A stretch of DNA of 64,000 nt from Phycisphaeraceae bacterium (GCA_963674705.1 OY771506.1:288001-352000), one strand, 5' to 3'. Shown: positions 57,658-62,052, counted from the stretch's first letter. The notes: generated by a model from the sequence alone, not told the origin. A program made the numbers and translations.

Positions 57658-58515
57658 ATGCAGACACGTAAACTGGGCAAGACCGACCTCGAACCGACCG
57701 TCATCGGCTTCGGCGGGGTCGTGGTGTGCGATGAGACACAAGACGATGCCAACCGCATGATCGCCGAGGCGTTCGACGCGGGCATCCGCTACTTCGACGT
57801 CGCCCCGCAGTACGGCAACGCTCAGCAGCGCATGGGCCCGGCCCTCGAGCCCTACCGTGACAACGTCATGCTCGCCTGCAAAACACTCGAACGTACAGCC
57901 GACGGCGCTCGCAAAGAGCTGGAAGACTCCCTGACCAAGCTGCGCACCGATCACTTCGACCTGTACCAGGCGCATGCCGTATCCAGCCTCGACGAAGCCA
58001 AGCAGATCCTCGGCCCCGGCGGCGCGATCGAGGCCTTCAAGGAAGCACAACAGGCGGGCAAGGTCCGCTACATCGGCTTCAGCGCCCACGATGAAGAAGC
58101 CGCCCTGCACCTGGTCGAGTCAGGCCTGTTCGCATCCGCCCTGTTCCCGCTGAACTACACCGTCCTGCAGCATGATGGCTTCGGCAAGAATCTGATCGAG
58201 GCAGCCAACGCCAAAGGTATGGGCCTGCTGTCGCTCAAGGCGATCGCACGGACAAAGATCCCGCAGGGCGGTGAACGTTCTCACAAGAAGTGCTGGTATG
58301 TGCCGGAGGATCGGCGGGATGTGGCGCACCTGATGCTGCGCTACGTGCTGAACCTGCCGGGCGTCGCCGCCGCCGTCCCCCCGGGCGATCCGGGCCTGTT
58401 CAAAATGGTCATGGGCTTCGCCGACAACATCGACCCGCTCAACGGCGAGGAACTGGCCGAACTCGAAGAAGCCGTAGGCGAAAACAGCCCCCTGTTCCCC
58501 CTGCAGACGGCGTAA
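57658..58515 (+). CDS. Aldo/keto reductase
   Basis: AAGGAG RBS; RKLGKT, FDVAPQYG, LACKT, DHFDLYQAH, GKVRYIGFSAH. Confidence 0.92.
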   Translation: MQTRKLGKTDLEPTVIGFGGVVVCDETQDDANRMIAEAFDAGIRYFDVAPQYGNAQQRMGPALEPYRDNVMLACKTLERTADGARKELEDSLTKLRTDHFDLYQAHAVSSLDEAKQILGPGGAIEAFKEAQQAGKVRYIGFSAHDEEAALHLVESGLFASALFPLNYTVLQHDGFGKNLIEAANAKGMGLLSLKAIARTKIPQGGERSHKKCWYVPEDRRDVAHLMLRYVLNLPGVAAAVPPGDPGLFKMVMGFADNIDPLNGEELAELEEAVGENSPLFPLQTA

Positions 58516-58525
58516 ACCGGTCCGG

Positions 58526-58682
58526 TCCCCTCTCCCCCCGGGAGAGGGTTAGGGTGAGGGCCGAATTCCTGGCGCTTTCATCATCCACGTTAACCTGCCA
58601 AAAACACCAATTATTGCTACGATCTGCGGTCCTGAACCCCGCTGCGTAACCCCGGCTAATCCCGGGCTTCCGCCCGGGGCTA
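58526..58682. repeat. REP-like cluster upstream of glyQS
   Basis: CCCCTCTCCCCCCGGGAGAGGGTTAGGGTGAGGG (related copies near 8778-8808 and 63227-63253) and CCCGGGCTTCCGCCCGGG. Confidence 0.7.
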
Positions 58683-58789
58683 TTGTGGATATGCCTTCAC
58701 AGGCTGCCGATGACTTGTACACCAACAGCCCCACCCGCAACGATGGGGTTCAACAACCCTCGAACCTTAAGTTACGCAGGACCAACCCC

Positions 58790-60499
58790 ATGCCCGACAT
58801 CGACCCCGCCGACAAATCCATGGACGCCATCGTCGCCCTCTGCAAGCGACGCGGTTTCGTTTACCCGGCCTCCGAAATATACGGCGGGATCAACGGCTTC
58901 TGGGACTACGGTCCGCTCGGTGTCGCACTCAAAAACAACATCCGCGACCACTGGTGGAAACACATGGTCGAGTGCCCCCCCATCGGCCCCGACGGCGAAC
59001 CCGTCGCCATGGTCGGCCTCGACTCCTCCATCATCCAGAACCCACGCACGTGGGAAGCTTCAGGACACGTCGGTGGATTTAACGACCCGATGGTCGACTG
59101 CAAAGAGTGTAAAAGTCGCTTCAGAGCCGATCACTTATACACACAGACTTGGGCTGAGCCAGAGAAATTTGGCGAATACTTCCTAGAAGGCCCAGAAAAC
59201 CCGCAACCCGATCCCTCTTATCTTGCTATTTTGCCTATTGAAAAACGCAAAGAGGTGAGAGACCAGTATGAACTCGAACTTAAACTTCACGCAAAAGATC
59301 GAGGTGAGGTAATCAGACGATTAGTAGTGGCTTCTAGTCTGGAAGAAGCTGAAACTATTGAGCTGACGGGCAAGCATAAGAAACTGGCTGATAAACTCGG
59401 TTTGAAATTGTTCTGGACTGTTCCACTTGCTGAATATGATTATCACGCACCTCGTGGCGAAGGATGTCCAAATTGTGGTGGAGAACTTACGGCACCGAGA
59501 CTCTTCAACCTCATGTTCGAAACCTATGTCGGGGCAATTCGAGACGACGATGCGAAAGCGTATCTGCGTCCGGAAACCGCGCAGGGCATTTTCCTGAATT
59601 ACAAGAACGTGCTGGACACGATGCGCGTTAAAGTCCCGTTCGGTGTGGCGCAGATCGGTAAATCATTCCGTAACGAAGTAACCCCCCGTAACTTCATATT
59701 CCGCAGCCGTGAGTTTGAACAGATGGAGATGGAATGGTTCTGCGCCCCGGATGAGGCTGCCAAGTGGTACGAGTTCTGGAAGATCGAGCGTATGAAGTGG
59801 TGGAAGACACTCGGTATCAGCGACTCGAACCTGCGCTACCGCGACCACGATGATGATGAGTTGGCGCACTACTCGAAGATGTGCGTCGACATCGAATACA
59901 AGTACCCCTTCAGCGCCCCGGGCTACGGCGAACTGGAAGGCGTCGCACACCGCGGCTGCTTCGACCTGACCCAGCACCAGACGCATTCCAAGCAGAAGCT
60001 GGAATACTTCGACCAGGAGCGCCAGGTCAAAGCCAAGGAAGCCGGTGCGAGCAAGGAAGAGATCGACGCGCAGAGCAAGTACATGGCCAACGTCATCGAA
60101 CCCGCCAGCGGCCTGACGCGCGGCGTGCTGGTGCTGCTGTGCGAAGCGTACACGGAAGACCACACCCGCCCGAGTAAGGTGTTCATGAAGTTCAAGCCGA
60201 AGTTCGCGCCGATCAAGGCAGGCATCTTCCCGCTGGTGAATAAGGACGGCATGCCCGAGGTCGCGCAGAAGCTCTACATGCAATTGCGCGAAAAATACAC
60301 CTGCCAGATCGACGCCAAGCAATCGATCGGCAAACGCTACGCACGCATGGACGAAGCAGGGACACCCTTCTGCTTCACCATCGATGGCGACACGCTCAAC
60401 GATCAGACCGTCACCGTCCGCGACCGTGACTCGCAGAGCCAGGAGCGGATCAACATCGACAAGGTTGATGCGTTCTTAACGGAGAAGATCGGACAATAA
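58790..60499 (+). CDS. glyQS: Glycine--tRNA ligase, alpha2 (eukaryote/archaea-like) type
   Basis: KRRGF..SEIYGG, WDYGPLG, WEASGH, YLRPETAQG, GKSFRNE, FRSREFEQME, IGKRYARMDEAGTP. Confidence 0.96.
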   Translation: MPDIDPADKSMDAIVALCKRRGFVYPASEIYGGINGFWDYGPLGVALKNNIRDHWWKHMVECPPIGPDGEPVAMVGLDSSIIQNPRTWEASGHVGGFNDPMVDCKECKSRFRADHLYTQTWAEPEKFGEYFLEGPENPQPDPSYLAILPIEKRKEVRDQYELELKLHAKDRGEVIRRLVVASSLEEAETIELTGKHKKLADKLGLKLFWTVPLAEYDYHAPRGEGCPNCGGELTAPRLFNLMFETYVGAIRDDDAKAYLRPETAQGIFLNYKNVLDTMRVKVPFGVAQIGKSFRNEVTPRNFIFRSREFEQMEMEWFCAPDEAAKWYEFWKIERMKWWKTLGISDSNLRYRDHDDDELAHYSKMCVDIEYKYPFSAPGYGELEGVAHRGCFDLTQHQTHSKQKLEYFDQERQVKAKEAGASKEEIDAQSKYMANVIEPASGLTRGVLVLLCEAYTEDHTRPSKVFMKFKPKFAPIKAGIFPLVNKDGMPEVAQKLYMQLREKYTCQIDAKQSIGKRYARMDEAGTPFCFTIDGDTLNDQTVTVRDRDSQSQERINIDKVDAFLTEKIGQ

Positions 60500-60505
60500 G
60501 TTAAA

Positions 60506-60688
60506 ACCGCGAAGGCGCGAAGAGCGCGAAGAAAATCATTATTTAGCCACCGATAAACACGGATGAACACAGAGACCGATCAATAGCTCGGATCCATCCA
60601 AGCCGACTTCTTTTTCTTATCTGTGTTTATCCGTGTTTATCTGTGGCTAACTTCTTCTCATCCTTCGCGATCTTCGCGCCTTCGCGGT
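60506..60688. repeat. Nested inverted repeat complex (two families)
   Basis: Outer ACCGCGAAGGCGCGAAGA / TCTTCGCGCCTTCGCGGT; inner TTAGCCACCGATAAACACGGAT / ATCCGTGTTTATCTGTGGCTAA. Confidence 0.88.
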
Positions 60689-60696
60689 AAAAGAAT

Positions 60697-61578: not shown

Positions 61579-62052
61579 ATGCCCGTTAAGAGATTGCGAG
61601 AGTATTTGGACAGCCACGGCGTGAAGTACGTGGTACTCAGCCATTCGCCCGCCTACACCGCCCAGGAGATCGCGAGGGCCGCGCACGTACCCGGACAGGA
61701 GATGACCAAAACCGTCATGGTCAAACTCGACGGCGAACTGGTCATGATCGCGATGCCCGCGCCGTCCAAAGTGCGTTTCGACATGCTGCGCGAGGCCAGC
61801 GGAGCCGAGGTCGTCGAACTGGCGCGCGAACGTGATTTTGCCGGCCTGTTCCCGGGCTGCGAGCTGGGCGCGATGCCGCCGTTCGGCAACCTGTACGAAG
61901 TCCCGGTGATCGTGGACCACATGCTGGCCGAGGATGAATACATCTGCTTCAACGCCGGCACACACACGGAACTGATCCGCATGTCCTACGCCGACTTCGA
62001 CGCGCTGGTCAAACCCACACTCATGCAGCTGAGCGAACCGCTGATGCTGTAA
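61579..62052 (+). CDS. YbaK/EbsC (ProX-like) aminoacyl-tRNA deacylase family protein
   Basis: AAGGAG RBS; KTVMV, FPGCELGAMPPFG, FNAGTH. Confidence 0.92.
   Translation: MPVKRLREYLDSHGVKYVVLSHSPAYTAQEIARAAHVPGQEMTKTVMVKLDGELVMIAMPAPSKVRFDMLREASGAEVVELARERDFAGLFPGCELGAMPPFGNLYEVPVIVDHMLAEDEYICFNAGTHTELIRMSYADFDALVKPTLMQLSEPLML

Follow-up and report, generated by a model that had tools for sequence, protein, structure and literature searches.

The locus considered here raises the question of how an AT-rich segment came to lie within the only glycyl-tRNA synthetase (GlyRS) gene of a marine Phycisphaeraceae bacterium, and what drives its presence there. The window, i.e. the whole stretch of DNA that was analysed, comprises 64,000 nucleotides (GCA_963674705.1 OY771506.1:288001-352000), and positions without a genome prefix are counted from its first letter. 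The genome (G000; 96.6% complete, one contig) contains one glyQS match, and its named relatives are Phycisphaeraceae (Planctomycetota). Membership in the GlyRS family is above the curated cut-offs (597 bits against a cut-off of 312 for NCBIfam NF003211, 493 against 243 for TIGR00389), with a class II core and an HGTP anticodon domain, and the modelled enzyme matches 8sld with a fold Z of 32.3 and an rmsd of 2.4 over 316 aligned residues. An in-frame GTG at 58685 offers an alternative start that would add 35 aa; several relatives of the same genus align from the ATG at 58790, and relatives found by homologue search match the product from residue 1. The features of the gene are as follows.

58790..60499, + strand: glyQS, the genome's single gene for alpha2 glycyl-tRNA synthetase (569 aa)
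59054..59137, + strand: 5' co-converted flank, conserved motif EASGHVGGFNDPMVD..RFRADHL in foreign AT-ending codons, from the GC3 change-point and pS against the sister genome G004
59099..59110, + strand: first zinc knuckle CKEC (C104, C107), a putative zinc site read from the sequence; CTDS instead in the G004 allele
59138..59464, + strand: exchangeable arm of 109 aa at 45% GC; P0065 is the one protein with a close version of this allele type
59156..59308, + strand: nested helical subdomain with helices 124-132, 142-147 and 150-166, from the AF2 model (pLDDT 48-71)
59309..59425, + strand: arm scaffold with strand 174-180, helices 184-203 and strand 206-212 (AF2 pLDDT 82-88, residues 171-210)
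59465..59476, + strand: second zinc knuckle CPNC (C226, C229), a putative zinc site from the sequence, aligning with CPDC of mycobacterial GlyRS 8u2q
59477..59728, + strand: 3' co-converted flank, stepwise, with dense silent differences to about 59575 and a further patch to 59728

The arm was first pointed out in a first-pass annotation made by a model from the sequence alone, and its 327 nt are indeed in frame between RFRADHL and CPNC, with a GC content of 42-48% in each third. The AT-rich codons reported in conserved motifs are likewise present, GAA GCT TCA GGA at 59054 and TGT AAA AGT CGC TTC AGA at 59108. The 65-67% GC given for the flanking parts of the gene holds for local highs (64-66% in 100-nt spots), but not for the whole cores (63% on the 5' side, 59% on the 3' side), and the altered tract, which had been drawn to 59560, is real but ends further on, at about 59728. 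The GC3 profile drops from 0.85 to 0.37 at 59054 and recovers stepwise, reaching 0.66 from 59501 onwards and 0.84 from 59759; the log-likelihood of this island is 47.8, compared with a maximum of 11.8 over 200 shuffles. The low-GC signal is mostly synonymous: at fourfold sites, the insert has a GC of 0.33 where the core has 0.875, which rules out amino-acid composition as the source of the AT richness.

The segment follows the first core strand and is enclosed by two CxxC knuckles, C104/C107 and C226/C229, and the Atlas features of residues 100-240 reach 0.94 to PF28494 clusters (GlyRS_ins_1). By position and motif, it corresponds to the part of insertion 1 that varies in alpha2 GlyRS, here in the only such enzyme of the genome. 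The same position between two CxxC knuckles characterises the insertion 1 described for alpha2 GlyRS (PF28494; 8sld, 8u2q; PMC12208437, available in part). In the available part of that source, insertion 1 is placed at the tRNA acceptor arm and differs from group to group, even within Mycobacterium, where two groups use different insertion domains; the mycobacterial insert between the knuckles is largely disordered, likely located at the acceptor arm, and becomes ordered on ligand binding. By analogy with the mycobacterial enzyme, the arm described here is likely to sit near the tRNA acceptor arm as well.

Structure prediction with AF2 on a 30-sequence alignment gave a mean pLDDT of 72, part of the core being poor, and a pLDDT of 34 from the single sequence without an alignment. 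In the model, the arm stands on the knuckle stem and runs through strand 116-122, three helices (124-166), strand 174-180, two helices (184-203) and strand 206-212. Strand 116-122 is the first strand of the arm scaffold, and the nested helical subdomain is placed between strands 1 and 2, which yields a beta-beta-helix-beta scaffold with nested helices, although the nested part itself reaches low pLDDT values. Judged by eye beside this model, the scaffold appears to be kept in shorter insert types that lack the nested helices, and many types probably share it, with additions nested into it. Because the scaffold is probably shared, the arms would be diverged alleles of insertion 1 and not foreign domains. 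A fold search with the full GlyRS model returned synthetase-core matches only and none for the arm.

The origin of the tract becomes visible in comparison with G004, a genome of the same genus which, like G000, is a single contig. The two genomes share 97.8% identity over the 1244 nt that lead up to 59133 of the window. Codon by codon, their glyQS genes are near-identical until the GAA at 59054, after which most silent sites differ within conserved motifs, and near identity is regained beyond 59728, the 3' flank spanning the motifs FNLMF, YLRPETAQ, FRNE and REFEQ. The corresponding pS values are 0.04 in the 5' core, 0.84 in the 5' flank, 0.81 in the insert, 0.62 in the 3' flank and 0.18 in the 3' core. 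From DP to FNLM, the protein measures 138 aa in G000 and 109 aa in G004, and the two arms are non-alignable; the G000 arm contains four cysteines, and the knuckles are absent from the G004 arm. A contig of run X11, which differs from the window at 11 positions over 548 nt of the 5' part (98% identical) and of which 26 nt fit the window at the second knuckle, crosses the tract in 458 nt compared with 491 nt in the window. As this is 33 nt shorter, a third allele exists that is 11 residues shorter. Run X9 has the same 87-nt length difference as G004 and was left out of the independent count; X7 and X8 may represent the source of the window itself, and the small-share runs X1 and X3 do not enter any statement on habitat.

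The sharp change of silent divergence inside conserved sequence and the conflicting histories of block and core are those of a mosaic gene. The comparisons show that insertion 1 of GlyRS is an allelic cassette in Phycisphaeraceae and their relatives: the exchanged block measures about 0.5-0.7 kb, and its crossovers fall at varying distances in the conserved flanks. Since the tract ends are staggered inside conserved motifs, ordinary homologous recombination would be the agent of the exchange, a reading that is well supported and held with high confidence. The proposal of the first-pass annotation that the segment is a swappable module recombined in conserved flanks thus stands, in view of non-alignable inserts on near-identical cores among the aligned glyQS genes of close relatives, silent divergence in both flanks and the conflict between insert and core histories. 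Homologous recombination is active in the G000/G004 pair generally, with diverged donors and without an obvious selective story: a 25-codon window with at least 50% of silent sites changed occurs in 56 of 587 low-divergence genes, and one with at least 60% in 21 of 587.

Several minor observations concern glyQS and its surroundings. Contigs break in the 3' flank of the arm in three drafts of the same genus (end of G007:C2, end of G008:C99, start of G002:C105), which is what a sample containing several strains with different arms would be expected to give. G007 has a second, frameshifted glyQS copy with the common short arm (G007:C75:4359-5875; L037), which may be a sequencing error or contamination, because alaS of G007 also has many stops. 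A peptidase-M50B-like membrane protein gene follows glyQS in G004 (L003:2524-3141), and an IS200-like transposase gene precedes it in G009 (L004:390-1157). Within the window, short multi-copy palindromic elements flank glyQS on both sides (58520-58565 and 60500-60690), the summed contig depth is very high at 58500-58566, and an inverted-repeat pair follows the stop codon. Two genes downstream, at 61582-62052, lies a gene for a free-standing YbaK/ProX-type tRNA editing domain that is kept in several relatives.

The extent of the allele pool was assessed in a sample of loci plus the 120 best full-length matches, from which 158 distinct complete GlyRS were kept after partial, unparsed and duplicate rows had been dropped. 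With a threshold of 40% identity over 70% of the length, their inserts fall into 51 types, 37 of which are singletons, while the largest type has 60 members across distant lineages; insert lengths range from 42 to 152 residues, with 194 in one partial locus. Where the distal cores of a pair share at least 95% identity, the insert type differs in 17 of 33 cases, these pairs not being independent. For example, P0041 and P0056 share a core with 99.7% identity and have arms of 152 and 85 residues; some of the metagenome-derived proteins could be assembly chimeras, although G000 and G004 are single-contig genomes. The converse case is also found, in that arms 75-90% identical sit on cores that are 59-75% identical. 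The sole close relative of the G000 arm belongs to P0065 (52.6% identity over 114 aa, 56% including the knuckles), whose core is 62% identical to that of G000 and ranks 157 of 158. G000 and P0065 as a clade in the core tree are rejected with a p-AU of 1.7e-88 (IQ-TREE, 26 rows), and two other same-type groups are rejected as well (p-AU 6.7e-8 and 0.006); the groups were defined by insert type, and the tests were run after a FastTree tree had been inspected. These results show that arm versions move between lineages whose cores, in the sequences compared, are about 60% identical.

Pairs of the same insert type have a pN of 0.13-0.15 at a pS of 0.77-0.82, which marks the arms as conserved proteins whose silent divergence is either old or fast; the pS of their cores is 0.21-0.47. 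There are also lineages with a stable arm allele, as in family f2, where one allele is retained at 88-96% identity in four genomes. In a phylum-wide sample, inserts are mostly 32-59 aa long, and a GC3 drop occurs in 1 of 20 parsed loci (7 more were unparsed), so the strong form is concentrated in the sampled branch of the Phycisphaerae. GC3 of the arm is below that of the core in 52 of the 59 loci with DNA. The AT richness of the arm tracks the rarity of its type: in the 50 loci whose core GC3 is 0.7 or higher, GC3 falls by 0.3 or more in 13/17 arms of rare types, 1/9 of middle types and 2/24 of the commonest type.

A number of known elements were considered as the identity of the arm and rejected. 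It is not an intein, as the first-pass annotation had also concluded, since it starts with YTQ and ends with GEG, without an N-terminal Cys/Ser or a C-terminal His-Asn signature, and has no Hint domain and no Pfam match at E up to 1. A real intein carrying a LAGLIDADG domain is found in DnaB of the same genome (G000:C1:2284017-2286530). Silent-cassette gene conversion of the pilS/vls type involves silent partial copies in the same genome, and no silent partial copies accompany the one glyQS match of G000. An in-frame palindromic element (RPE/REP) does not fit either, as the insert is single copy, with only chance inverted repeats of 10-12 nt and no junction repeats. The target of a diversity-generating retroelement was rejected because blastn and tblastn found no second insert copy in the genome and no repeat pair is present near the sole reverse transcriptase gene. 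The latter (G000:C1:1952708-1953988, 427 aa) is common to G004, has two same-strand genes upstream and is presumably retron- or defence-like; a search for a template repeat near it found none.

Searches with the insert alone gave little. A word-index search for homologues of residues 112-232 and phmmer with a 140-aa query against 1.84 billion representatives returned nothing, and 400 genomes of the class gave one match with stops (E 3.5e-4) that is taken as chance. The best E values were 0.5 against phage genomes and 0.049 against PHROGs, both uninformative, and the Atlas without the GlyRS families gave at best 0.87 for the insert. These blanks reflect low sensitivity, since P0065 surfaced only via the full-length search. 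Viral contigs contain 18 GlyRS loci with 39-54% identity, and among the 15 that were parsed, both an arm of this kind and a GC3 drop are absent; these loci thus give no hint of a viral donor.

The exchange is not restricted to GlyRS. In a scan for internal low-GC3 segments, which drew on 2939 crudely called ORFs of 250 codons or more and scored 2916 of them, IleRS ranks first, GlyRS third, AlaRS fourth and ValRS sixth; rank 2 is a mis-called start and rank 5 a lectin-domain protein. Synthetases thus account for four of the top six islands (hypergeometric 2e-8, assuming 20 synthetases). In a second scan, G000 was compared with 1.59 Mb of G004 (about 28% of the genome), the synthetase regions having been fetched on purpose, and a swapped segment was defined as an internal stretch below 45% identity in an otherwise conserved gene. 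Among 676 orthologue pairs with a median protein identity of 98%, ten have such segments, and five of these ten are synthetases (AlaRS, GlyRS, ValRS, IleRS and GluRS). In all, five of 19 synthetases stand against five of 660 other genes (Fisher 2e-6), the segments in the latter being either swapped or indels. Four segments have a GC3 below 0.55 in both genomes, all of them in synthetases. No swap was found between the two genomes in PheS or in the Lys, Asp, Gln, Arg, Met, Pro, Trp, Leu, Thr, His, Ser, Tyr and Cys synthetases (PheT was not located), nor in EF-Tu, the two EF-G, EF4, TypA and RpoC.

The AlaRS segment (about 386-465) directly precedes LYDTYGFP, and the ValRS segment (about 512-580) lies between RQLWWGHRIP and DVLDTWFSS; several unrelated AT-rich versions of both exist across the genus. 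IleRS has two segments, one in part of the editing domain (about 220-315) that is AT-rich in G004, and one in the anticodon domain (692-890) that is AT-rich in G000 and is 45-49% identical to genomes of the same genus, but 72% to P0127 and 69% to P0128. The GluRS segment directly follows KMSKR and is much longer in G004. We take the AlaRS, ValRS and IleRS segments to lie beside the tRNA-binding face. Silently diverged flanks surround each of these segments, and the alignments show replaced segments equivalent to the GlyRS arm in IleRS, AlaRS, ValRS and GluRS. The same swapping in four other synthetases of the genome suggests a pressure on these core enzymes towards continual change of their surface. 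A zinc-ribbon ORF follows valS in G004 (L192:4762-5343). Outside the synthetases, the best candidate for a swapped domain is the laminin-G/lectin-domain protein encoded at G000:C1:2516314-2520288 (L138), whose low-GC3 segment (residues about 635-871) is silently diverged from G004.

The explanation that we favour, with somewhat better than even confidence, combines cassette exchange with an advantage of rare alleles. In the proposed scheme, ordinary homologous recombination would carry out the exchange of arms that form exposed surfaces beside the tRNA-binding face. Rare versions would be favoured because foreign synthetase-docking proteins would fail to recognise the enzyme; candidate antagonists are phage modifiers like T4 Vs, toxin kinases like HipA and enzymes attacking bound tRNA. 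The rare-allele advantage would keep many old arm versions in circulation. Rare arms, lacking homologous partners and long residence, would stay near an AT-rich mutational equilibrium, and a common or long-resident arm would turn GC-rich like the core. Escape from synthetase-binding phage proteins or toxins, a possible pressure that the first-pass annotation had also raised, has about even odds of being the driver. Counting against this scheme are the frequent silent-divergence patches elsewhere in the genome pair, the five swapped or indel segments outside the synthetases, the commonest arm type with its spread over distant lineages, the lineages that keep one arm allele, and the scarcity of the GC3 drop in the phylum-wide sample.

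Phage and toxin proteins that target synthetases are known. In the available parts of the respective sources, T4 vs modifies ValRS and is required for plaque formation in minimal medium (PMC13716836), while HipA phosphorylates the KLSKR loop of E. coli GltX and HipT acts on TrpS (PMC6581861). ValRS and GluRS, the targets of T4 Vs and HipA, carry swapped segments here, and the GluRS segment adjoins KMSKR, the counterpart of the loop phosphorylated in GltX. Unlike the exchange proposed here, host escape by cassette exchange is not described in the available parts of these sources. A HipA-family kinase domain (HipA_C) is encoded in G004 (G004:C1:4923969-4924673) without a match in G000, which has no bearing on the driver either way. 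A bolder version, held with less than even confidence, is that synthetases are a hidden front of bacterial conflict, with interchangeable arms drawn from a cross-family pool, like serotypes of cytoplasmic enzymes. If so, each arm would block or recognise a different synthetase-binding protein encoded by phages or rivals, or screen out phage tRNAs, and the set of arms (Gly, Ala, Val, Ile, Glu) would map the charging steps attacked by enemies; the proneness of synthetases to insertion and transfer would be explained as well.

Neutral shuffling of a tolerant loop, the rival with the best standing and a modest but appreciable likelihood, requires no advantage of rarity: conserved flanks would admit distant donors, synthetase genes transfer readily, and AT richness would be the mutation bias of DNA without homologous partners. 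The background of silent-divergence patches in the G000/G004 pair is consistent with it, and arm lengths of 32-194 aa mean that no single version is required. In the available parts of two sources, synthetase replacements may be neutral according to the haloarchaeal LeuRS paper (PMC3436685), and different insertion domains occur in two Mycobacterium groups (PMC12208437). Against it, RpoC, two EF-G, EF-Tu, EF4, TypA and 14 synthetases are equally conserved yet unswapped, the tracts are centred on the arm with their ends in the near flanks, singletons dominate the types (37/51), and the two genomes, although their proteins are about 98% identical, differ in five synthetases. Uptake of non-homologous DNA from cores about 60% identical should moreover be rare without selection. 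An advantage of rare arms is favoured because the recombination background leaves unexplained why non-homologous, AT-rich segments with many alleles occur in one enzyme class.

Functional tuning, in which the arms would serve to modulate how tRNA is handled, how Ap4A is made or some side activity, e.g. for a 28-gene tRNA array or for acquired tRNAs, is unlikely. A location of insertion 1 by the acceptor arm and its ordering on ligand binding (PMC12208437, in its available part) would suit such a role, as would the purifying selection on same-type inserts and the large second tRNA array in G000 and G004. However, the housekeeping tRNA-Gly genes TCC and CCC are identical in both genomes despite unrelated arms (the comparison covers these two housekeeping genes), so the arm is not following a change in either of them; the two Gly tRNAs of the array are 96% identical, and a fixed substrate predicts few convergent versions instead of 51 types. 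The array itself lies outside the window (G000:C1:622407-634732) and comprises 28 tRNA genes that form a second, divergent, near-complete set, present in G004 at 95-100% identity, which could serve as a back-up under translational attack.

Less probable still is a selfish drive, in which a free-standing homing endonuclease would cut synthetase genes in trans and repair would copy a resistant block with recoded flanks. The recoded flanks do resemble co-conversion tracts, but Pfam finds no nuclease family among the 25 ORFs neighbouring the five genes, the sole LAGLIDADG_3 match in G000 lies inside the DnaB intein with none in G004, and each of the five unlinked genes would call for a nuclease of its own. 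Local hypermutation, whether DGR-like or error-prone, which the first-pass annotation had offered as the alternative source of a divergent, AT-rich segment, is largely refuted and has hardly any likelihood left: the insert pS of same-type pairs does exceed their core pS and the genome encodes one reverse transcriptase, but the higher pS is partly expected from looser base composition, neither a template copy in the genome nor a repeat pair near the reverse transcriptase gene was found, a pN far below pS points to purifying selection, alleles vary in length and putative zinc ligands, and the 53% relative of the arm sits on a distant core.

Cassette exchange under rare-allele advantage resembles established systems in part. 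In mosaic and hypervariable-cassette genes, such as those for the penicillin-binding proteins of Neisseria and Streptococcus, the central domain of flagellin and the specificity domains of type I restriction enzymes, a variable block within conserved sequence is likewise swapped by homologous recombination, is often AT-rich, and shows divergence fading into the flanks. Those genes, however, encode surface antigens, drug targets or defence functions with a known selective agent, whereas here several cytoplasmic core translation enzymes per genome are affected and the agent is only proposed. Insertion 1, as far as the available part of PMC12208437 describes it, varies as a lineage-level difference, whereas here genomes that share about 98% identity already differ in it, its flanks are recoded, about 50 types exist, and versions have passed between distant cores. 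A variable insertion 1, synthetase transfer and mosaic genes are already known; the present analysis adds the genome-wide enrichment in synthetases, the negative controls and the tree test. A literature search, with supplements and subscription papers outside its scope, turned up no account of cassettes being exchanged in synthetases within a genus, or in several synthetases between sister genomes, and the available parts of a PVC indel paper (PMC3000692) and two preprints contain nothing on it.

Synthetases are usually treated as slow-evolving core genes and phylogenetic markers, yet in the present case entire surface modules of five such enzymes are exchanged between genomes that are otherwise about 98% identical. 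Two old questions thereby become testable, namely the purpose of lineage-specific synthetase insertions and the reason why synthetase genes transfer so often. If conflict drives the exchange, the arms would be ready baits with which to find new phage or toxin proteins directed at translation; should it be neutral, marker-gene trees of the group need the tracts and their recoded flanks masked. In the available parts of earlier work, synthetases are exchanged among relatives as homeoalleles, with antibiotics suggested as driver and neutrality as the alternative (PMC3191353, PMC3436685), and a recombination breakpoint is placed inside haloarchaeal LeuRS (PMC3436685). The likeness lies in exchange among relatives; as far as those parts go, whole genes or ancient forms are concerned there, whereas here the catalytic core is retained and only peripheral modules, 60-200 residues in size, are replaced from one sister genome to the next. 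One further observation concerns glyQS in other groups. The same CPPIGPDGEP motif, together with the common arm type where parsed, is found in GlyRS of L046, L060, L063, L064, L067, L069, L072, L077, L085 and L087, in records named Alphaproteobacteria/Micavibrio, Bdellovibrionales, Myxococcota and Gammaproteobacteria, several of these groups being predatory; because records of several phyla have this motif in common, transfer of the entire gene across phyla is suggested.
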